Shown: in pieces, positions 33,110 through 52,373 of the stretch
Layout of the letters: the number at the start of each line of letters is the position of its first letter
How positions within the stretch are numbered: the first letter of the stretch is position 1
Origin: a bacterium
GTDB taxonomy: Bacteria > Sysuimicrobiota > Sysuimicrobiia > Sysuimicrobiales > Segetimicrobiaceae
Assembly (NCBI GenBank): GCA_035295165.1
Contig: DATGJN010000117.1
Location: forward strand, 24,114-88,113
Length of the DNA stretch: 64,000 bases
Direction: 5' to 3'
Position numbers and translations under genes: made by a program
Notes under the pieces: generated by a model
Seen by the model: only the letters and a program-made list of their open reading frames with translations
Databases searched by the model: none
Told to the model about the DNA's origin: nothing

Positions 33110-33186
<77 letters not shown>

Positions 33187-39624: not shown

Positions 39625-40541
39625 GGGGCCAGCGCTCCGGATCGCCACAGATCGAGGCAGGCCGGCGCGACGTCGGTGATCGCCCGCAGTCGGGGGGCGA
39701 GCGCGTCCCGCCCGGCCCCCACCAGCAGCGCCGGCACCGGGTTGAGGGTGTGCGCGCGGGTCCGCGCGTCCTCGAGGTTGCCGTGGTCGCTCGTCAGCAA
39801 GACGAGGGTCTCCCGCGCATCGACGGCCGCGAGCGCCGCGCCCAACATGCGGTCGAGCCGCTCGATGACCTCGACGGGATCGCCGGTGCGACCGTGCCCC
39901 GCGAGATCCGTTTCGAAGAACTCGAACAGCGTGAACTGGTGCTGCCCCGCGATCGCGCCCAGCCGGCGCCCCGCTTCCTCGGGGGCCACCGCGGGGACGT
40001 CGATCCCCTGGCGGCGTAGCCACGTGTTCGTGAGATCATGGTAGACGGCGCGCCCGGCGCGCAAGTCGTCGAGATCGCGAAGTCGCACCCCGGCCTGCAT
40101 CGCGTTGAGCGTGATCGCCGCGTGACGTAGCCGCCGGGCGGTCACCGCGGCGAAGTACCCATCGGTGTAGGCGTTGGCGAGGGCGGCCGGCACGTCGGCC
40201 GCCCGAAGCCGGACCAGGAGTCCTCGGGACGCCAGCAAGCTCCGCAGCGACGGCGTTGGATATGCGGTGACGTGGCGCCCGAGCAGCGCGGGGGCGTTCT
40301 CGCCGGTGAGCAGCGCCGTCTGTCCCGTCGCGCTCTGGGGGAGGCCGGCGACTCCGAGCCGCGCGTCAAGCGGCACGAGGGTCGCGCGCTCGGTCCGCAC
40401 CCGCTCGCGTCCGGCGAGTGGACCGTCGAGCAGCGCGTGGAGCGTCGGCGTGTGCGCGCGCACAAAGGGGTTGGCCGCGGGGTCGCGGTCTCCCAGCCCA
40501 ACGCCGTCCACGAACACGAGCAGCATCCGCACGGGCTGCAT
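39621..40541 (-). CDS. alkaline-phosphatase-superfamily 'metalloenzyme' domain protein (cofactor-independent phosphoglycerate mutase / phosphopentomutase-related)
   Basis: MLLVFVDGVGLG...TSDHGNLED motif layout of the PF01676-like family. Exact activity not inferable. Confidence 0.5.
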   Translation of the reverse strand: MQPVRMLLVFVDGVGLGDRDPAANPFVRAHTPTLHALLDGPLAGRERVRTERATLVPLDARLGVAGLPQSATGQTALLTGENAPALLGRHVTAYPTPSLRSLLASRGLLVRLRAADVPAALANAYTDGYFAAVTARRLRHAAITLNAMQAGVRLRDLDDLRAGRAVYHDLTNTWLRRQGIDVPAVAPEEAGRRLGAIAGQHQFTLFEFFETDLAGHGRTGDPVEVIERLDRMLGAALAAVDARETLVLLTSDHGNLEDARTRAHTLNPVPALLVGAGRDALAPRLRAITDVAPACLDLWRSGALAP

Positions 40542-43770: not shown

Positions 43771-46050
43771 TCACTCGCGGAGCTGGGCCCCGGCCTCCGT
43801 GCGTAGCGCTATTCGGACCTGTAGCATAATTTCCTCTGCCTCCTCGGCAACCAGCGTGCGGTCGGGCGCCCGCAACCGCAGCCGGTAGGCAAGGTTGCGG
43901 TGGTCCCGCGGGATCGGCGCGCCGGTGTACACGTCGAACAGGTCGATCGCTTCGAGCAGCGGCCCGGCCGCCGCGCGAATGATCGCTTCGACCCGGCCCG
44001 CGGGCACCGTCTCCGGCAGGACCACGGCGAGGTCGCGTTCGATTTCGGGGTAGCGCGGCAGGCCGGTGAACGTGCGAGCCGGCACGAGCGATCGCGGCAC
44101 GGGCGGGACGGGCATCTCGTCGCTCACGCGGTCGTCGCCTCCTCGACCGCCGGCGAGCGCGTACAGCGCTTCGAGATCTATCTCCGCGAGATACGCACGG
44201 TGCGGCAGTTTGTGCGGCGAGGCGAGATCCGGATGCAGCTCGCCGAATCGTGCGACGAGCCGGTCGCCGATCCGGACCTCCGCCGAGCGGCCGGGATGCC
44301 ACCACCCCGCGCGGCTCAACGAGGGCGGATCTCCGCTCCCAGCGGAAGCGGGTCGCTGCCGCTCCGCGGACTCACGGACCTCCGCCACCTCGTGTGCCGG
44401 GACCGCGAGCTCGGCCAACAGCGCATCCAGGATCCACCGAAGGTGGTAGAAGTCCACGACCGCCTGATCCGCCGGCACGTTCCATCCGGCGCGCCAGCGG
44501 CCTGTCGCGGCGATCGCCAGGCTGCGCCGCTCGTCGGGACCGCTGCCCGCGCCCGGTAAGAACACACGGCCGAGTTCGAACACCTGCGCATCCGCGATCC
44601 GCCGCGCGGCGTTGGTGGCGAGCACCGCCAGCGCCCCGGGGATCAGCGATCGGCGGAGCGCGTTGTGGTCCTGGGTCAACGGATTCGCGATTGCGACGAG
44701 CGGCTCGGTATCGTCGGCGTCCGGCGCGGCGCGGACCAGCGTGAGCGTCATCGCTTCGACGAGGCCGCAGCGTGTCAACACGTCGCGCACGCGCCGGTCG
44801 GTCGCCAGCGCGGGCGCCACGCTCCCGGGCGTCGTGTCCCCGATGGGCAGCGTGGGTGGGACGCGGTCGTAACCGTACACGCGGATGACTTCTTCGATCA
44901 GGTCTTCCTCCACCACCACGTCCGGCCGAAATGTCGGAGCCTGCACGGTCAGCGCGCGGCCAGGCGTCACCCGGCATCCGAGCGCACGGAGAATGCGGAC
45001 CATCTCACGAGGAGCGATCTCAACGCCCAGCACCGACACCGCTCGGTCGGGTCGCAGACGGATCGTCTTCGGGGTCACCAGTCGAGGATACACGTCCACC
45101 ATGCCGGGGAGCACCCGTCCGCCGGAGGTCTCAGCGACAAGCACCGCGGCCCGCATCTGCGCCCGCGGCGGCCCGTTCGGATCAGCGCCCCGTTCGAACC
45201 GTGCGCCAGCCTCTGTGCGCACGCCCAACCGGCGTGCGGCGCGCCCGATCACGAGAGGATTCCAGTACGCGGCCTCGAGGAGGACCGTCGTCGTGCGCGG
45301 CCCGATCTCCGTGTCCGCGCCGCCGATGATGCCGGCGATCGAGACCGACCGCCGATCGTCGGCGACGACTAGCATCTCGTCGTCGAGCGCCCGTGTGACC
45401 CCGTCGAGCGTCTCCAGCGTCTCGCCCGGCCGCGCACGCCGCACGACGAGCCGGTGTCCGGCGACGGCGTCGTAGTCGAATGCATGCATCGGCTGACCGG
45501 ACTCCAGCATCACGTAGTTGGTCACGTCCACGATGTTGTTGATCGCGCGGACGCCCGCGGCCTCGAGCCGGCGCTGCATCCAGGCGGGCGACGGCCCGAC
45601 GCGAACACCCTCGATCACCGTGGCGGTGAACCGGGGGCACCCCACGGCGTCCTCGACGTCGACCCGCACCCGATCCTCGGCCGTCGCGCGCGCCGCGGCC
45701 GCGGCAGCCCCGATGGGGGCCGCCCCACGGCGCGGGGATGTGGCCGCTCGGCCGGTCCGCCGGCGCGGACGGGCCAGCGACGCCCCTTGCCGCCCCTCCG
45801 TCCGCGGGTCGGGGTAGCCGTGGGGATAGCGCAGCGGGTGGCCGAGCAGCAGCGCGACCTCGCGGCCCACCCCGAGCACGCTCATGCAGTCGGGACGGTT
45901 GGCCGTCACCTCGAGGTCCAGCACCACGTCGTCGGCGACGTGCGCGATCTCCTCGGCCGGAAGCCCGACCCCCGCAAGGCGCTCCGCAAGCACTTCGGGC
46001 GCCACACCCACCGTCACGTACTCCCGCAGCCAGTCAAGCGGTACCCGCAT
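43771..46050 (-). CDS. pheT: phenylalanine--tRNA ligase beta subunit (short form, no N-terminal EMAP/tRNA-binding domain)
   Basis: MRVPLDWLREYV..., B3/B4 region (ANRPDCMSVLGVGREVA), B5, and a C-terminal anticodon-binding domain. ATG at 46050 with GAGGGGAG RBS. Confidence 0.93.
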   Translation of the reverse strand: MRVPLDWLREYVTVGVAPEVLAERLAGVGLPAEEIAHVADDVVLDLEVTANRPDCMSVLGVGREVALLLGHPLRYPHGYPDPRTEGRQGASLARPRRRTGRAATSPRRGAAPIGAAAAAARATAEDRVRVDVEDAVGCPRFTATVIEGVRVGPSPAWMQRRLEAAGVRAINNIVDVTNYVMLESGQPMHAFDYDAVAGHRLVVRRARPGETLETLDGVTRALDDEMLVVADDRRSVSIAGIIGGADTEIGPRTTTVLLEAAYWNPLVIGRAARRLGVRTEAGARFERGADPNGPPRAQMRAAVLVAETSGGRVLPGMVDVYPRLVTPKTIRLRPDRAVSVLGVEIAPREMVRILRALGCRVTPGRALTVQAPTFRPDVVVEEDLIEEVIRVYGYDRVPPTLPIGDTTPGSVAPALATDRRVRDVLTRCGLVEAMTLTLVRAAPDADDTEPLVAIANPLTQDHNALRRSLIPGALAVLATNAARRIADAQVFELGRVFLPGAGSGPDERRSLAIAATGRWRAGWNVPADQAVVDFYHLRWILDALLAELAVPAHEVAEVRESAERQRPASAGSGDPPSLSRAGWWHPGRSAEVRIGDRLVARFGELHPDLASPHKLPHRAYLAEIDLEALYALAGGRGGDDRVSDEMPVPPVPRSLVPARTFTGLPRYPEIERDLAVVLPETVPAGRVEAIIRAAAGPLLEAIDLFDVYTGAPIPRDHRNLAYRLRLRAPDRTLVAEEAEEIMLQVRIALRTEAGAQLRE

Positions 46051-46061
46051 CGGCGCTCCCC

Positions 46062-47087
46062 TCAAACCTGCCGCAGAAAGCGGAGATCGTTCTCGTAGAA
46101 CAGCCGGATGTCGTCGATCCGGTGTCGGAGCATCGCGGGCCGCTCCACGCCCATGCCGAACGCGAACGCGGTGTAGCGTTGCGGATCGATCCTGGACATC
46201 TCGAGGACGCGGGGATGAAACATCCCGCAGCCGAGGATCTCAAGCCAGCCGGACCGCTTGCACACGGCGCACCCCCGGCCGCCGCAGATCACGCAGGAGA
46301 TCGCCATCTCCGCGCTCGGCTCCGTGAACGGGAAGTACGACGGCACGAACCGCGCGCGGGTCTCCGGTCCGAAGAACGCCTGGGCGAAGTGCAGCAGCAC
46401 GCCTTTGAGATCCGAGAAGCGCACCCCCTCACCGACCATGAACCCGTCGACCTGCTGAAACATCGGCGAGTGACTCGCGTCCACCGGGTCGCGCCGGTAG
46501 CAGTGCCCGTACGAGATCGCCCGCATCGGTGGGCGGCGGCAGTCCATGACGTGCACGTCCACGACCGTCGTGTGCGTGCGCAACAGCCACTCGCCCCCGA
46601 GGTAGAACGAGTCTTGCGCGTCGCGCGCAGGATGGTACGGTGGCATGTTCAGCCGCTCGAAGTTGTCGTGGTCGCGCTCGACCTCGGGGCCCTCGACGAC
46701 TTCGAACCCGAGCCCGAGGAAGATCTGCGCGACGTCCTCCATCGCTCTCGACAGCACGTGCGTCCGGCCCGACGCAAGCGGACGCCCGGGCAGCGTGACA
46801 TCGATCCGCTCGTCCGCGAGCCGTGTCTGTCGCCCCGCAGCCGCCAGCGTCTCCGCGCGGCGCTGGACGGCGTCCTCGACTGCGGCTTTCAGCGCGTTCA
46901 GCACCTGGCCGAGCCGGGGACGGTCCTCCGCGGACGCGCGCCCGAGCGCCCGGAACGCCTGGGCGATGACGCCCTGGCGGCCGAGATATCGGACGCGCAC
47001 TTCCTCCAGCGCCGTCTCCGTCGTGGCGTCCCTGCACGCCTGCTGCGCCTCGCGCTCGATCTCCGGGATCCGGTCCAACTCCGTCAT
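46062..47087 (-). CDS. pheS: phenylalanine--tRNA ligase alpha subunit
   Basis: MTELDRIPEIEREAQQ... with class II motifs 1-3 (FPFTEPSAE, GMGVERPAML). ATG near 47087, plus or minus 1-2 nt, with GGAGGAGGG RBS. Confidence 0.9.
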   Translation of the reverse strand: MTELDRIPEIEREAQQACRDATTETALEEVRVRYLGRQGVIAQAFRALGRASAEDRPRLGQVLNALKAAVEDAVQRRAETLAAAGRQTRLADERIDVTLPGRPLASGRTHVLSRAMEDVAQIFLGLGFEVVEGPEVERDHDNFERLNMPPYHPARDAQDSFYLGGEWLLRTHTTVVDVHVMDCRRPPMRAISYGHCYRRDPVDASHSPMFQQVDGFMVGEGVRFSDLKGVLLHFAQAFFGPETRARFVPSYFPFTEPSAEMAISCVICGGRGCAVCKRSGWLEILGCGMFHPRVLEMSRIDPQRYTAFAFGMGVERPAMLRHRIDDIRLFYENDLRFLRQV

Positions 47088-47126
47088 GCGCCCTCCTCCG
47101 GCGCGCTGCGGCGCGTCCGGTTCGGC

Positions 47127-47395
47127 AACAAAAAAACGCACCTCCGTCCAAGGGACGGAAGTGCAGCTTCCGCGGTCCCACCCTTCTTCCGCCCGCGATC
47201 GTAGGGCCGCGGACGACACTCGATGCACCCCGGGGTACGGGCCGGGCGCCCTGTCTGCCTACAGGCGGCGATCCGCCGCGGTCAGCACACCGCTCGGGAG
47301 TGAACGTGCGCGGCGAGGAACGCGGGCCGGCTCGCAGTCGGTGACCGGCCCTCCCTTGGCGCCGCGATCTCGCGCACCCTCTCCGTCATCGCAAA
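47127..47395 (-). ncRNA. T-box riboswitch leader of pheST: Stem I (GCGAUGACGGAGAGGG...), T-box sequence AGGGUGGGACCGCGG (47170-47184), intrinsic terminator (11-bp stem CACUUCCGUCC/GGACGGAGGUG plus U7, 47129-47164)
   Basis: Reverse complement read directly: GAAGAAGGGTGGGACCGCGGAAGCTGCACTTCCGTCCCTTGGACGGAGGTGCGTTTTTTTGTTGCC, about 40 nt upstream of the pheS RBS. Confidence 0.6.
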
Positions 47396-47435
47396 ACAAC
47401 TCGCTGCGATTGCCCGCCGACCCGGCGTCGTCGGG

Positions 47436-47564
47436 TCAGTTCAGGATCGGCACGATCCAACGCGGATGCCGCGTCGTGAGCTGTCGGTACAGCAGATACG
47501 CCCAGACGGAACCCGTGGTCTCGAATACGCGCCAGAAGCACTCCGGCGTCCACGTGATCTCCAC
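47436..47564 (-). CDS. candidate 42-aa small protein (V/MEITWTPECFWRVFETTGSVWAYLLYRQLTTRHPRWIVPILN), Trp-rich, lower local GC
   Basis: GTG start 6 nt after AGGAGGGG. Extended -10 TGTTATACT at 47650-47658 upstream. Not in the 60-aa-minimum ORF track. Composition unlike GC-driven spurious ORFs. Confidence 0.35.
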   Translation of the reverse strand: MEITWTPECFWRVFETTGSVWAYLLYRQLTTRHPRWIVPILN

Positions 47565-47706
47565 CGCGCCCCTCCTGCGTGCCACGTACGTTTCTGGGGG
47601 CCCCGAAGGAAACGACCGCCGTCGCGGATGGCCCTCTGAGGTTGGTCCCAGTATAACACAGCCTCGCTGGCTGCGTCACGCACTCAGCCGCGGCGGGTAG
47701 CTGTTC

Positions 47707-47752
47707 AATGATTTTGTCACCCCGGAACTGCTCAGTGATTCTGTCACCCTGG
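47707..47752. repeat. tandem 19-bp imperfect direct repeat (AATGATTTTGTCACCCCGG / AGTGATTCTGTCACCCTGG, period 27 bp); each copy contains a CRP/FNR-like GTGA-N5-TCAC half-palindrome
   Basis: Seen directly. Positioned about -45 to -95 relative to the putative TSS of the small-ORF promoter. Confidence 0.4.
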
Positions 47753-47790
47753 GAGGATGGACAGGGAGACGATCACCGGACGCGCGTGCG

Positions 47791-48603
47791 TTAGGACAGA
47801 CCCGCGGCGCGGTAGAGCAGAATCGCCGCCGCAGCGGCGACGTTGAGCGACTCCACACCGTCCGCGATCGGGAGGCGCACGGCCTCGGCGCCGGCGCGCC
47901 ACCACGCTGCGTCGGCGCCCGCGCCTTCGTTGCCGAAGATCATCGCCAGCGGCCGATCGAACGACGCCTCGGCGACCAGCCGCCCGCCGCGCGGGGCCGC
48001 CACCAGCAGCCGAACGCCTCGCCGGCGCAGCTCCTCGGCGGCCGTCGCGGCGGTCGCCGCGTGCAGGAGCGGCATGCGGAACGCCGTGCCCGCGGATGCC
48101 CGCAGCGCCTTCGCACCGAACGGATCCGCCGCGCCGCCGACCGTCACCGCGCCCGTCGCCCCGACGGCCGCAGCGGTACGCAGAATCGCCCCCACATTTC
48201 CGGGATCCTGGACGGCGTCGAGCACGACGAGCAGCGCGTCCGGCCGGTCCAGCTCGGAGGGGGACGCCGGCGCGGGCCTCCGCGCGATCCCGAGCGCGCC
48301 CTGAGGCGTCTCGACCTGCGCCACCGCGGCAAACACGTCGCGCGCGACGAGTACTTCGCGCGCGCCCAGCGCCTGCAGATCTCGGCGCAACGGCGCGTAA
48401 CGCGCATCGCCGGCGGCGTCGGGCGTGTAGACGACGGCCTCGAAGCGTGCACCGGCCGAGGCGGCGGCGGCGAGCGCGCGCCACCCCTCAACGGCCACGC
48501 GGTCCGCCTCCCGGTGCGGCGAACGCAGCAGCGCGCGCAGATCGCGGATGAATGGATTGCCGCGGCTCGTGATCACGACACCCGACCGTGCCAGAGAGCG
48601 CAT
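47791..48603 (-). CDS. TrmH/SpoU-family RNA 2'-O-methyltransferase (RlmB-like)
   Basis: SPOUT motifs (LVVLDAVQDPGNVGAILRTAAAVGA; IFGNEGAGA; LNVAAAAAILLYR). Confidence 0.8.
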   Translation of the reverse strand: MRSLARSGVVITSRGNPFIRDLRALLRSPHREADRVAVEGWRALAAAASAGARFEAVVYTPDAAGDARYAPLRRDLQALGAREVLVARDVFAAVAQVETPQGALGIARRPAPASPSELDRPDALLVVLDAVQDPGNVGAILRTAAAVGATGAVTVGGAADPFGAKALRASAGTAFRMPLLHAATAATAAEELRRRGVRLLVAAPRGGRLVAEASFDRPLAMIFGNEGAGADAAWWRAGAEAVRLPIADGVESLNVAAAAAILLYRAAGLS

Positions 48604-48664
48604 ACACAAGGCCCTCCCCGTGTTTGGGGAGGGCCCTCCGCGCGCATCGCGTGCACGTCCGCGG

Positions 48665-49018
48665 CTACTTGTCGACTTGAGCCCGTTTGACGAGCGCCTC
48701 GAACGCGTGACCGTCCCGCACCGCGAGATCGGCCAGGATCTTCCGGTTCACCTGGATGCCGGCGCGGCGCAACCCGCAGATCAGGCGGCTGTACGAGGTG
48801 CCGTGGGTTCTCGCCGCCGCGTTGATCCGGGCGATCCAGAGACGGCGGAAGTCGCGCTTCCGCGCGCGCCGGTGCGCGTAGGCCTGCGCCAGCGCCCGCA
48901 GCACCGTCTGGTTGGCCATCTTGAACCAACGGCTCTTCTTGCCCCAGTATCCCTTGGCCAGCTTCAGCACCTTGCGGTGCCGGTGTCTGGCCGCCATCCC
49001 TCTCTTTACGCGTGCCAT
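48665..49018 (-). CDS. rplT: 50S ribosomal protein L20
   Basis: [37 protein letters not shown]... canonical. Confidence 0.96.
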
Positions 49019-49048: not shown

Positions 49049-49246
49049 CTACCTGTACGGGAGCAGCCGCTCGATCCGCGCCGCATCCTGCGTTCCGATC
49101 TCCCGTGTCTGCCGGAGCGACCGCTTTCGCGATCCCCGCTTGTGCTCCATCAGGTGCCCGCCCAACTGACGGCCGCGTATCAGCTTGCCGCGGCCGGTGA
49201 CGCGAATCCGCTTCGACGCGCCCCCGTGTGTCTTCAGTTTCGGCAT
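49049..49246 (-). CDS. rpmI: 50S ribosomal protein L35
   Basis: MPKLKTHGGASKRIRVTGRGKLIRGRQ... canonical. Confidence 0.95.
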   Translation of the reverse strand: MPKLKTHGGASKRIRVTGRGKLIRGRQLGGHLMEHKRGSRKRSLRQTREIGTQDAARIERLLPYR

Positions 49247-49298: not shown

Positions 49299-49826
49299 CT
49301 AGGTCTTCTTCGGTGCGAGGATCATGATCATGTTGCGACCCTCCATCAGAGGCTGCCGCTCCACGACCGCGACCTCGCCAAGTTGCGTGGCCATCCGGCG
49401 GAGAATCTGCTCCCCGACCTGGGGGTGCGCCATCTCGCGCCCACGGAACCACATCGACACGCGAACTTTGTCGCCGTCCTTAAGGAACCCGCTGACCGCC
49501 CGGGTCTTGACTTGCAGATCGTGTTCCCCGATCTTCGGGCTCAGCCGCATGCCCTTGAGTTCCGACGTCTTGGACTTCTTGTGCGCCAACCGTTCGCGCT
49601 TGGCCTGCTCGTACTTGTACTTGCCGAAATCCATGACGCGGCAGACCGGCGGAGACGCGGTGGGCGCGACCTCCACGAGATCGACCCCGGCCTCTTGAGA
49701 CTTCGCCAGGGCGTCTTGCAGCGACAAGACACCTAACTGCTCGCCGTTCGCTCCAATCAGCCGGACCTCGCGGGCCCGGATGCGATTGTTGATCCGCGTC
49801 TCGCGCTCGCGCTCTACGGGTGTGAT
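49299..49826 (-). CDS. infC: translation initiation factor IF-3 with a non-AUG (ATC) start
   Basis: The in-frame extension upstream of the first ATG encodes the conserved IF3 N-terminus INNRIRAREVRLIGANGEQLGV. The frame opens right after a TGA. Candidate start is ATC at 49826. Confidence 0.8.
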   Translation of the reverse strand: MTPVERERETRINNRIRAREVRLIGANGEQLGVLSLQDALAKSQEAGVDLVEVAPTASPPVCRVMDFGKYKYEQAKRERLAHKKSKTSELKGMRLSPKIGEHDLQVKTRAVSGFLKDGDKVRVSMWFRGREMAHPQVGEQILRRMATQLGEVAVVERQPLMEGRNMIMILAPKKT

Positions 49827-50111: not shown

Positions 50112-52373
50112 TCACTGTGGGGGAGGCACGTTCGTGCCCCACGGCAGCACGCGGACCACCACGAGCGCCTGGTCGTCCCTCGCGCCGTCGCCGCTCCATC
50201 GTGCCACGGCGTCCATAACGCGGTCGGCGATGTCCTCTGGTTGGGCGTGACGGTGCTCCACGACGTGCTCGGCGAGCCGCTGTTCGCCAAACTGCTCGCC
50301 GTCCGCGCGCCGCGCCTCCGTGATCCCGTCGGTGAACAGCACCATCAGATCGCCGGGACCCACGCGCGTCTCGATCGCCGCATAGTGTGCTCGGGTCTCG
50401 ACGCCGAGCAGCAAGCCGGGCGCCTCCAGCGTGACCGGGGCGGGCTCGCCGGCGCGCAGCACCAAGGGCGCCGGGTGCCCGGCGCTCGTGCAGCGCAGCG
50501 TCCCCGCCTCCGGGTCGATCACGCCGTAGAAGAGACTGACGAACAGATCCGACGCCGCGTCCTGCGTAAGCACGGTATTCATCCGTGCCAGCACCGCTTC
50601 GGGCGGCCGCCCGTCGAGCACAAACGCCTCAAGCAGGTAGCGGGTGCGCGCGGAGAGCGTGGCGGCGCGAATCCCCTTGCCCGAGACGTCTGCGATCGCA
50701 AAACCGACCTGTCCCTGCCCCAGCGCCAAAACAGCGTAGAAGTCGCCGCCCACCTCGCGGCTCGGGACGTATCGTCCGGCGACTGCGAGGCCGGGGAGGC
50801 GGACGCTCGGCGTCGGGAGCAGCGCCTGCTGTATCACCCCGGCGATCTCCTGTTGGCGCTCGTAGGCGCGCGCGTTGTCGACGGCCAGGGCGACGCGGTC
50901 CGCGAACGCTTCGATCAATCGCACGTCTTGGGCCCGGAACTCGCGCGCTTCGTGGGACACGATCTGCATGACGCCAATGACCTTCCCACCCACGCGCAGC
51001 GGCACGCTCGCCGCGGCTCGCACCCCCTGCGCGAGCAGTCGGGGATCGAGCGCCCGAAACGCCTCTTCGCCCGAGAGCACGAGCGCGCGCCCGCCGTCGG
51101 CGACCCGTCCGGCCAGCCCCTCGCCTCGCGGCAGCCGGCGCACGCCTGCCGCGCCCTGGCCGGACTCCGCCGGAACGACGAGGTCGCCCGTGGCCTCGTC
51201 GACGAACCACACCGTCCCGCCGTCGGCGCGCAGCGCCGAGGCGATCTGTTGCACGAGCGTGACGAGCAACTCGCCGAGCCGCACCGTCGAGAGCGCGGCG
51301 TCGCTGACGCCCTGGAGCGCGTTCATCTCGTCGTGGGACCGCGTGAGCCGTTCGCTCATCTCGTCGAACGCCGCCCCGAGTTCCCCGAGTTCGTCGGTGC
51401 GGCGAAGCCCCACGCGGTGGCCGACCTCGCCGCGTCCGATCGCGCGCGCACCCCGCGCGAGCGCGAGGATCGGGGCACTCAGCTCCGCCCCCAGCACCCA
51501 CGCCAGAAACAGCCCGAGCCCAACCGCGGCGAACACCCACTCCAGTTCTTCCTGCGCGGCCCGGCGCACCGGCTCCAGCGCCGAGGTCTCCGGTTCCAGG
51601 ACGACCGCGGCCCATCGTAGGTTCGAGATCGGCACCGCCGCGCCAACCTCGCGCGCGCCGGCACCGTTCTCCTGGTACCCCTCGATCGTCCGCGGCTCGC
51701 CGCGGAGCGCAGCCTGAACGGCCGGGAGCGCCGCGAGCGAGTGCGCCGACCTCGCCGGCCGCCGCAGATCGAGGACGATGCGGCCGGCATCGTCGACGAT
51801 GACACCGTCCATGTCCGGCGCAAGCGCCGTCGGCAACACCGGCCGCACGCTCGTCAGGTCGACGATGCCGTCGACGACGGCGGCCAGATGCTGCGCCTCG
51901 GTGATGCCGGTGGCGACTTCCAACCCGGGACGGCCGGCCGAGACCCGCACGGCGCCGGTCGCCCAGGGCGCGCCCGCCAGCACCGCGGCGAACCCGCGGC
52001 GGGTCACGACGTTCGCGTAGGGGTCCCCGGACGGGTCGGCCGCCTCTACATGGCCGTCCGGCAGCACTAGGCCGAGCCAGAGGAAGGACGGGTCGTAGGC
52101 GCGGATCGACGCCAGCAACTGCACGATGCCGACCACCGGATACGGCTGGCTCTCCACCGCCGATCCCGCGGCGAGCTCGGCGTGCACCGTGTTGTCGATG
52201 AACGTCGAGACGTCCGAGGCGAGCGCGCGCGCGGCGTCCTGCTGGGTCCGAAGCACAACGTTCCGCCGGGCTCGGTCTTGCTCCACGGTGAGGAGGACCC
52301 CGAGGACCAACACCGGGACCATGCAAATCAGGATGACGCCCGCGATCTTACCGCGGATGCCGAGCCGCATCAC
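50112..52373 (-). CDS. membrane-anchored sensor PP2C phosphatase (N-terminal TM + periplasmic sensor domain, HAMP, GAF, SpoIIE/PP2C)
   Basis: TM segments flanking a periplasmic region of about 250 aa, a HAMP-like linker, a GAF-like segment, and a C-terminal PP2C (GDFYAV...DVSGKG...FTDGITE). Confidence 0.8.
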   Translation of the reverse strand: MMRLGIRGKIAGVILICMVPVLVLGVLLTVEQDRARRNVVLRTQQDAARALASDVSTFIDNTVHAELAAGSAVESQPYPVVGIVQLLASIRAYDPSFLWLGLVLPDGHVEAADPSGDPYANVVTRRGFAAVLAGAPWATGAVRVSAGRPGLEVATGITEAQHLAAVVDGIVDLTSVRPVLPTALAPDMDGVIVDDAGRIVLDLRRPARSAHSLAALPAVQAALRGEPRTIEGYQENGAGAREVGAAVPISNLRWAAVVLEPETSALEPVRRAAQEELEWVFAAVGLGLFLAWVLGAELSAPILALARGARAIGRGEVGHRVGLRRTDELGELGAAFDEMSERLTRSHDEMNALQGVSDAALSTVRLGELLVTLVQQIASALRADGGTVWFVDEATGDLVVPAESGQGAAGVRRLPRGEGLAGRVADGGRALVLSGEEAFRALDPRLLAQGVRAAASVPLRVGGKVIGVMQIVSHEAREFRAQDVRLIEAFADRVALAVDNARAYERQQEIAGVIQQALLPTPSVRLPGLAVAGRYVPSREVGGDFYAVLALGQGQVGFAIADVSGKGIRAATLSARTRYLLEAFVLDGRPPEAVLARMNTVLTQDAASDLFVSLFYGVIDPEAGTLRCTSAGHPAPLVLRAGEPAPVTLEAPGLLLGVETRAHYAAIETRVGPGDLMVLFTDGITEARRADGEQFGEQRLAEHVVEHRHAQPEDIADRVMDAVARWSGDGARDDQALVVVRVLPWGTNVPPPQ

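Follow-up and report, generated by a model that had tools for sequence, protein, structure and literature searches.

Among described systems, those closest to the element reported here are the class-I (transcription-attenuation) T-box riboswitches of aminoacyl-tRNA synthetase (aaRS) genes in Bacillota, which are covered by the Rfam family RF00230; an example is the pheS T-box of Staphylococcus xylosus, entered in TBDB with the specifier UUC and the bulge UGGU. In such leaders Stem I, with its K-turn, specifier loop, AG bay and distal loop, is followed by Stem II, the Stem IIA/B pseudoknot with its F-box, the purine string of Stem III, the T-box 14-mer with a UGGNACC bulge, an antiterminator whose helix A2 ends in a G.U pair, and a competing terminator. 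The bulge base N forms a Watson-Crick pair with the tRNA discriminator base (N73) in the majority of T-boxes (TBDB, PMC7778990), and A73 is one of four strictly conserved identity elements of phenylalanine tRNA (tRNA-Phe) in all domains (Giege and Eriani, PMC9976931). T-boxes are believed to have been present already in the ancestor shared by Firmicutes, Actinobacteria, Chloroflexi and Deinococcus-Thermus, and a T-box in another Bacillati phylum is therefore to be expected; no earlier report of one in Sysuimicrobiota was found in the literature searched. Here, a 64-kb stretch of contig DATGJN010000117.1 (the window) from an uncultured soil bacterium of the phylum Sysuimicrobiota/CSP1-3 was analysed. 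On its minus strand, 5' of pheS-pheT, a complete class-I (transcriptional) T-box leader occupies 47392..47130, with a GC content of about 70%. All of the architectural elements listed above are present in the canonical order, and the UUC specifier and the regulated genes (pheST) are those of Bacillota pheS T-boxes. We are highly confident that this element is a class-I T-box riboswitch specific for tRNA-Phe, which controls pheS-pheT in this Candidatus Sysuimicrobiota bacterium. A T-box leader upstream of pheS-pheT had been proposed in the first-pass annotation of the window, and the proposal is borne out by the full architecture, by covariation in 13 leaders and by full-length RF00230 alignments of the orthologues.

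The evidence that carries this conclusion is comparative. PheS-based scans of reference genomes and metagenomes gave 21 loci with a PheS identity of 65-96%, all of them metagenome-assembled genomes or metagenome contigs, while the next-best PheS matches (Clostridia, Actinomycetota and others) reached at most 52% identity. One of the relatives (L004) is Candidatus Thermofontivivens primus, of the phylum Candidatus Sysuimicrobiota, formerly CSP1-3 (PMC11604079). In 19 of the 21 loci the T-box core and the specifier segment GUUC(A/G)CUYC were found at the orthologous place 5' of pheS. When searched permissively, RF00230 aligned over its full length (positions 1-219) to five of the leaders, with 69.6 bits (E=2.9e-13) in L096 and with 34.2, 31.9, 28.4 and 24.5 bits in L085, L086, L090 and L092, respectively. 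Orthology therefore links the window leader to sequences that the T-box model recognises from end to end.

Thirteen non-redundant leaders were aligned (alignment A1; 355 columns, 68% mean identity) and compared with a hand-specified canonical class-I structure of 57 pairs, which covers the K-turn, the GGAG/CUCC helix, upper Stem I, the distal helix, the two parts of Stem II, the IIA/B pseudoknot, Stem III and the antiterminator helices A1 and A2. As a control, the 3' partners were slid by 1-3 columns. Standard pairs filled 93.8% of the cells (57 pairs, 13 leaders), compared with 42-50% in the slid versions, and 14 pairs were changed on both sides, compared with 5-8; none of 500 shuffles reached any of the five measures. 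The compensatory changes fall in Stem II (7 pairs), Stem III (5), upper Stem I (1, pair 24:91) and helix A1 (1, in L067). The unpaired motifs were invariant or nearly so, including the K-turn GAUGA/GA, the AG bay CA(A/G)(A/G)G(A/G)G, the distal loop, GUUC with the following purine, GCUGA, CCCGUA, the RRRxG/AA around Stem III, and the whole 14-mer except N. The global fold from RNAalifold was set aside in favour of the hand-specified structure with its controls, as spurious long-range pairs were mixed into it. Length differences between leaders were seen at two places: the subclade of L086, L088 and L094 has an insertion of about 65 nt in the linker from the IIA/B pseudoknot to Stem III (columns 175-241 of the alignment), and in the sister-family leaders L004 and L096 about 40-70 nt are inserted inside Stem I.

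All of the sequence elements quoted in the first-pass annotation were found when 47600 to 46900 was read on the minus strand, to which the coordinates below refer unless stated otherwise. Stem I (47292..47392) begins, as had been noted, with GCGAUGACGGAGAGGG at 47392, and its helices 1-4 are 90-100% paired across the leaders. Its GA/K-turn motif consists of GCGAUGA (47392..47386) paired with ..CGAGC (47296..47292); the 13 leaders all have GAUGA and GA, and at 7:107 and 8:106, which flank the motif, pairing is 100%. Above it, the GGAG/CUCC helix, the specifier loop, an upper helix and a distal helix of 7 bp can be recognised. An AG-bay-like CAAGGGAG lies at 47358..47351 (CAGAGAG in relatives) and a distal loop of 14 nt at 47344..47331, on the distal helix, which is 98.9% paired. 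The conserved loop and CAAGGGAG align to GGUGaaA and cAGAGA of RF00230 in L085. From these motifs the AG bay and the distal loop may form the platform for the tRNA elbow, with the interdigitated T-loop fold as the predicted tertiary structure.

The 3' side of the specifier loop reads G-UUC-A (47301..47305), so that the Phe codon UUC at 47304..47302 is followed by a purine and then by the CUCC helix. GUUC is invariant in 13/13 leaders, the next base is a purine in all of them (A in 12, G in L085), and the CUCC:GGAG helix beneath the specifier is 100% paired. In the alignments of L096 and L085, UUC also occupies the specifier position of RF00230. The codon had been predicted correctly and had been placed slightly too far downstream, at about 47298-47300; the loop presents a Phe codon and not that of another amino acid.

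Stem II (47253..47290) has S-turn-like flanks, GA(C/A)...GUA, and a covarying apical helix, and was assigned with the RF00230 alignments of L085 and L096; its helices 5 and 6 are 95.6% paired. The Stem IIA/B pseudoknot (47230..47251; helices 7-8) is 87-88% paired with little variation, and contains an F-box-like CCCGUA at 47241..47236; in relatives this motif is matched with CCGUUA in the RF00230 alignment. Stem III (47189..47221), with conserved purines on both sides (5' GAGUG ... 3' AA) as the purine string of the discriminator domain, lies within the partial RF00230 match described below; all five of its compensatory changes fall in helix 9, which has 9 pairs and is 95.7% paired. The leader fits the flank motif 5'-RRRxG ... 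AA-3' defined in PMC7583486 and PMC11404447.

The T-box 14-mer, AGGGUGGGACCGCG, was confirmed at 47184..47171, with the bulge UGGGACC at 47180..47174 and N = G at 47177. GGTGGNACCNCG has a single exact match in the 64-kb window, and its one-mismatch matches number 18, compared with 13.6 expected; a short motif of this kind therefore proves little by itself. A second exact match of the core, in one of the relatives (L003 90-101), lies in coding-like sequence without a terminator and was rejected as chance. Among the one-mismatch matches, the 12-mer CGTGGGACCGCG occurs three times in the window, at 51332 (+), 56194 (-) and 59590 (-).

The antiterminator (47151..47184) is built from helix A1 (AGGG/CCCU) and helix A2 (GCGGAAG/CUUCCGU with a terminal G.U), separated by the 7-nt bulge, and has a calculated energy of -12.8 kcal/mol. 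Both helices (10-11 of the alignment) are 100% paired, the compensatory change of A1 in L067 being G:C to C:G, and the terminal G.U of A2, to which steric sensing of the aminoacyl group has been attributed (PMC7583486), is kept in 12/13 leaders. The intrinsic terminator (47130..47165) has a stem of 13 pairs (47165..47137), 96% paired across the leaders, followed by U7, and is the only terminator-like site in 46900..47800 (1 found, 0.3 expected). The U7 tract had been recognised in the first reading; the 11-bp stem given there is too short, and the overlap proposed between the 14-mer and the 5' arm of the terminator does not exist. Instead, the 14-mer ends 5 nt upstream of that arm and pairs with the 3' strand of the antiterminator (47161..47151). 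It is this 3' strand which the terminator 5' arm overlaps, the shared part being 47161..47153, thus making the two hairpins mutually exclusive. The terminator-containing fold of the window (-27.8 kcal/mol) exceeds its antiterminator (-12.8 kcal/mol) in stability by about 15 kcal/mol; the TBDB averages of -7.4 and -19.5 kcal/mol for antiterminator and terminator have the same asymmetry.

Downstream of the terminator, the Shine-Dalgarno (SD) sequence of pheS, GGAGGAGGG, is found at 47100..47092. The gene itself (46062..47087) encodes the alpha subunit of phenylalanine--tRNA ligase (TIGR00468, 314.6 bits, cut-off 237), and pheT (43771..46065), the start of which overlaps the pheS stop, encodes the beta subunit (TIGR00472, 515.4 bits, cut-off 403); both matches are at equivalog level.

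By homology with characterised T-boxes, tRNA binding, the sensing of its charge and the regulatory outcome can be envisaged as follows. Stem I of the nascent leader would capture tRNA-Phe, the UUC specifier pairing with the GAA anticodon while the tRNA elbow is contacted, by stacking, by the platform of AG bay and distal loop. The 3' NCCA end of an uncharged tRNA would pair with the UGGG bulge and stack on helix A1, which would stabilise the weaker antiterminator and allow RNA polymerase to read into pheST. Otherwise, the 13-bp terminator with its U7 would form and transcription would end about 40 nt before the ribosome-binding site of pheS. A translational (class II) mechanism was rejected, since some 30 nt separate the terminator from the downstream SD sequence, which is unsequestered.

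Several observations weigh against this interpretation and have to be set beside it. At its gathering score (93 bits in the copy used), RF00230 found no T-box in the window or in eight relative loci, and this score is reached neither by the window leader (25.1 bits) nor by any relative. A permissive search of 47000..47550 (551 nt), as had been suggested in the first-pass annotation, did give a match at 47224..47151 (25.1 bits, E=0.0013; window-wide E=0.15), which is below gathering and partial, covering model positions 156-216 (Stem III and the antiterminator) and leaving Stem I unaligned; the window held no other RF00230 match at E<=1. The absence of a significant covariance-model hit had been named as grounds for giving up the T-box, and the window sequence escapes that outcome only narrowly. 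Minimum free energy (MFE) folding was no better than that of shuffled sequences (z = -1.07 for the leader, -0.10 for Stem I), which is expected for an RNA that is 70% GC and rich in motifs; the single-sequence MFE fold put the specifier into spurious GC pairs. No sigma-70-like promoter was found immediately upstream of Stem I. In addition, Stem I and the T-box core are gone from two loci inside the UGGG clade (L089, upstream of 5001; L091, upstream of 865), which keep a homologous terminator hairpin (GCACUUCCGUCCC..GGACGG..GUGC with a U-rich tail) between yqzL and pheS; selection on the T-box is therefore not absolute in this clade.

Two further points of this kind concern motifs of the leader. 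The first is the S-turn of the specifier loop (5' AGUA, 3' GAA), which is absent from the clade of the window. Its positions are taken by three Watson-Crick pairs immediately above the codon (G22:C93, U23:A92 and G24:C91), of which 24:91 covaries, being GC in 5 leaders and CG in 4. RF00230 deletes AGUA when aligning L085, and the sister family has kept AGUA...GAA, according to the RF00230 alignment of L096 and to visual inspection of L004. As the S-turn is common rather than universal, its absence marks a variant and does not exclude membership of the T-box family. The second is the bulge G, which cannot pair with A73; the fourth pair is described as covarying with the discriminator (PMC7778990).

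The failure to reach the gathering score is one of sensitivity, the threshold being tuned on Bacillota-like sequences, and is no evidence against homology; the poor score can be explained by the loss of the S-turn together with the GC content. From the window alone the interpretation is only weakly supported, and its support comes from the comparative evidence rather than from Rfam. By its architecture and homology, the leader is a divergent T-box that departs from the known ones only in the Rfam threshold, the S-turn and, presumably, the N:N73 pair.

The base at N deserves closer attention. The first-pass annotation had pointed out that the bulge reads UGGG (47180..47177) where UGGU would be expected, and this G is real and conserved in the clade: 11 of the 13 non-redundant leaders, the window included, have G at N and two (L002, L083) have C, and UGGU was found in the sister family only. 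When the states were mapped on a neighbour-joining tree of PheS, U was found in L004 and L096, the two leaders of the sister family, G in the window and on all deep branches of its clade, C in one nested subclade (L002, L083), and loss of the T-box with retention of the terminator hairpin in two independent lineages (L089, L091). No pheS T-box was found in the more distant loci (Clostridia, Actinomycetota and others) searched for an outgroup state of N. The simplest history suggested by the tree is that U changed to G once, that G was kept while PheS fell to 70% identity, and that G then changed to C once.

Of the possible discriminators, A73 pairs with U only, G73 with U and C and not with G, C73 with G only, and U73 with G only, by wobble. 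No single discriminator therefore pairs with all three observed states of N. The window, the close loci and then the full set of 156 sequences (1.95 Mb) were searched for tRNA-Phe, and none of the 25 tRNAs found was specific for Phe. Reading the specifier in another frame, as GUU (Val) or UCA (Ser), was also considered. The discriminator is A73 in tRNA-Val and G73 in tRNA-Ser, and both frames were rejected because neither base pairs with G either. A second T-box of this organism, as a control for N:N73, was looked for in the window and not found; the other motif matches there were at chance level.

If the tRNA-Phe of this organism carries the strictly conserved A73, complementarity of N to N73 is a feature that the leader lacks. 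Very likely, G (or C) stands opposite A73 with no standard pair between them, in a switch that is nevertheless still under selection. With A73, the switch would work by three Watson-Crick pairs and purine stacking, the fourth position being G.A (C.A in one subclade). The base is not a neutral one, since G is kept at N whereas the loop positions around it are free to vary, and it is plausible, as a speculation, that a purine-purine opposition preserves the stacking between the acceptor stem and the three G/U:C/A pairs. A broader proposal, which we put forward tentatively and with some doubt, is that this clade has run an essential pheST T-box through deep divergence with a conserved G.A (C.A in the subclade) at the position of the fourth tRNA-acceptor pair of textbook T-boxes, and without the S-turn; the discriminator pair would then be dispensable, or else the switch would be tuned by its deliberate weakening or by purine stacking in its place. 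In the literature searched, which fell short of the founding T-box papers, there were no reports of UGGG in a T-box or of G or C opposite A73.

It is less likely that the tRNA-Phe of the clade has abandoned A73. In that case the T-box would be canonical, with a non-A discriminator (C73 or U73 with UGGG, G73 with UGGC), so that covariation would be kept and the strict conservation of A73 broken. Such a change would agree with the N:N73 rule, which holds in the majority of T-boxes (PMC7778990), and with the conservation of G across all deep branches, as would be expected of a paired position; moreover, A73 makes no contact with PheRS in T. thermophilus and is a minor determinant only (PMC9976931). 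However, A73 is strictly conserved for Phe identity in all three domains according to the same source, and at least two changes of the tRNA would be needed among genomes whose PheS proteins are 65-96% identical, since no discriminator fits all three states of N. Among the 25 tRNAs in 1.95 Mb there is no tRNA-Phe in support, and we regard this explanation as unlikely.

We consider it decidedly improbable that the leader is a decaying T-box, in which the sensing of tRNA has gone, the mismatch at N and the loss of the S-turn are early lesions, and pheST is expressed through a leaky terminator or from another promoter on the way to a loss of the L089/L091 type. The two independent losses of the T-box in the clade, with the terminator hairpin retained, could be read in this way, as could the deviation of two canonical features (the S-turn and N) and the interrupted U-tracts, such as GUUUGCGUUG, in several relatives. 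Yet the K-turn, GUUC with its purine, the AG bay, the distal helix and loop, GCUGA, the F-box, the Stem III purines, the 14-mer and the G.U sensor have remained invariant or nearly so at 68% mean identity, the 14 compensatory changes that keep the helices paired are the signature of continuing purifying selection, and N itself is conserved (G in 11/13) whereas neutral loop positions vary freely.

Least probable of all is that G at N is kept for an intramolecular reason unrelated to the tRNA (an alternative OFF-state or co-transcriptional pairing): RNAalifold did propose long-range pairs between columns 85-89 and 290-294, and in five columns a switch to G coincides exactly with the switch of column 294 to C, but the 85:294 'pair' would be G.G in three leaders (window, L001, L067), four of these five columns are already partnered within Stem II or Stem III and the other one (264) falls in the loop of Stem III, where the alignment is poor, and all of them stem from a single shared L002/L083 event among 15 private substitutions, so that chance explains them and the search of the alignment for a partner of N found no credible one, only single-event coincidences.

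The implications are twofold. The Rfam model at its curated threshold misses the T-box of the window and those of all its relatives, and riboswitch censuses of uncultured, high-GC Bacillati phyla (e.g. Sysuimicrobiota/CSP1-3) therefore probably undercount T-boxes; the alignment of 13 leaders could seed a clade-specific model. The clade also offers a natural series, from UGGU to UGGG to UGGC and then to loss of the T-box, at a bulge position that is said to covary with the discriminator. If its tRNA-Phe keeps A73, this series would be natural evidence on the contribution of the fourth T-box:tRNA pair.

The region upstream of the leader is occupied by a YqzL-like open reading frame (ORF) of 42 aa (VEITWTPECFWRVFETTGSVWAYLLYRQLTTRHPRWIVPILN; 47436..47564, minus strand; PF14006, 28.7 bits, gathering 27), which has an AGGAGG Shine-Dalgarno sequence and was too short for the default ORF list. 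All of the Sysuimicrobiota relatives have it immediately 5' of the leader, and it persists in L089 and L091, which lack the T-box. A sigma-70-like promoter candidate, GTGACG-18-TATACT with a TG, was found 5' of this ORF at 47650..47679 (minus strand; 1 site, 0.1 expected), and a TGCTATACT motif also precedes the YqzL-like ORF in L089 and L091. It is possible that the candidate promoter (47679..47650) serves yqzL, the T-box and pheST together, and the leader may thus be co-transcribed with the YqzL-like ORF. Between the stop codon of this ORF and Stem I, at ~47417..47434 (minus strand), there is a short GC hairpin without a U-tract (CCGAC-N8-GUCGG), and the differing sequences of the relatives at the same place can, by eye, also form a hairpin. 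This hairpin may serve as an insulator, as a processing site or as a weak terminator.

Further upstream on the minus strand, a SpoU/TrmH-family RNA methyltransferase (47791..48609; PF00588, 115.7 bits) is encoded between rplT and the YqzL-like ORF, giving the gene order infC-rpmI-rplT-spoU-yqzL-Tbox-pheS-pheT. The SpoU-methylase-pheS neighbourhood recalls ysgA-pheS of B. subtilis. A ribosomal protein L20 leader (RF00558; 49867..49994, minus strand) scores 42.5 bits, below its gathering score of 58.7, and lies 5' of infC (49299..49727), rpmI (49049..49246) and rplT (48665..49018); it was also seen in L090 (2243-2374) and L092 (79-212), with about 33 bits each, and is the second known cis-regulatory RNA that is missed at the curated threshold in this lineage. 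The ORF 5' of infC (50112..52373, minus strand; 753 aa) has HAMP/histidine-kinase-like and PP2C (SpoIIE-like) phosphatase regions; its identification as thrS was rejected, as it is a PP2C/SpoIIE-type phosphatase, and a 'mir-598' Rfam match inside it (51771..51855, 36 bits) is spurious.

Other RNA features lie further from the leader. A tRNA-Ile(GAU) with A73 and an encoded CCA is found at 33110..33186 (minus strand), about 10.6 kb downstream of pheT, and is syntenic in Ca. Thermofontivivens primus (L004 20657..20733, about 9.6 kb downstream of pheS). A 96-nt 'tRNA-Asp(GTC)' reported by ARAGORN at 40329..40424 (plus strand) was not seen by the Rfam tRNA model at E<=1 and is probably a false positive. 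Among the relatives, L001 has a Transposase-2 RNA (RF03015; 5338..5404, 44.8 bits, gathering 42.7) about 300 nt upstream of the pheS leader, of which no counterpart was detected in the window, and L067 has a fluoride riboswitch (RF01734; 8631..8705, 35.5 bits, gathering 34) about 7 kb downstream of pheS.

Compared with the Bacillota class-I T-boxes, with which it shares the order of its elements, the window leader scores 25 bits against a gathering score of 93, has a GC content of about 70%, and carries Watson-Crick pairs in place of the S-turn. Its clade has G (or C) instead of U at N, its host belongs to an uncultured non-Bacillota phylum, and a YqzL-like ORF stands between the leader and the sole recognisable promoter. 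A second comparison is with the sister family, whose pheS T-box (L004, Ca. Thermofontivivens primus; L096, metagenome) has the same orthologous position, GUUC specifier, T-box core and terminator logic. Unlike the window leader, it has UGGU, the AGUA...GAA S-turn and a Stem I that is about 40-70 nt longer, and in L096 it aligns to the full length of RF00230 with 69.6 bits; these two leaders represent the canonical state from which the clade of the window departed.

Departures from the Watson-Crick N:N73 pair are documented in Trp T-boxes, where U opposite G73 forms a G:U wobble that TBDB notes as an exception, and in His T-boxes, to which the discriminator rule is not applied (PMC7778990). Those cases have a standard wobble pair or an internally paired discriminator, whereas G or C opposite A73 in the window clade would be non-standard. 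The class-II translational ileS T-boxes of Actinomycetota likewise occur outside Bacillota, in a high-GC lineage, but have a short or ultrashort Stem I and a sequestered SD sequence, unlike the window leader with its full-length Stem I and its terminator about 30 nt upstream of a free SD sequence. Apart from the unexpected bulge base and the missed threshold, the element is an ordinary aaRS T-box.

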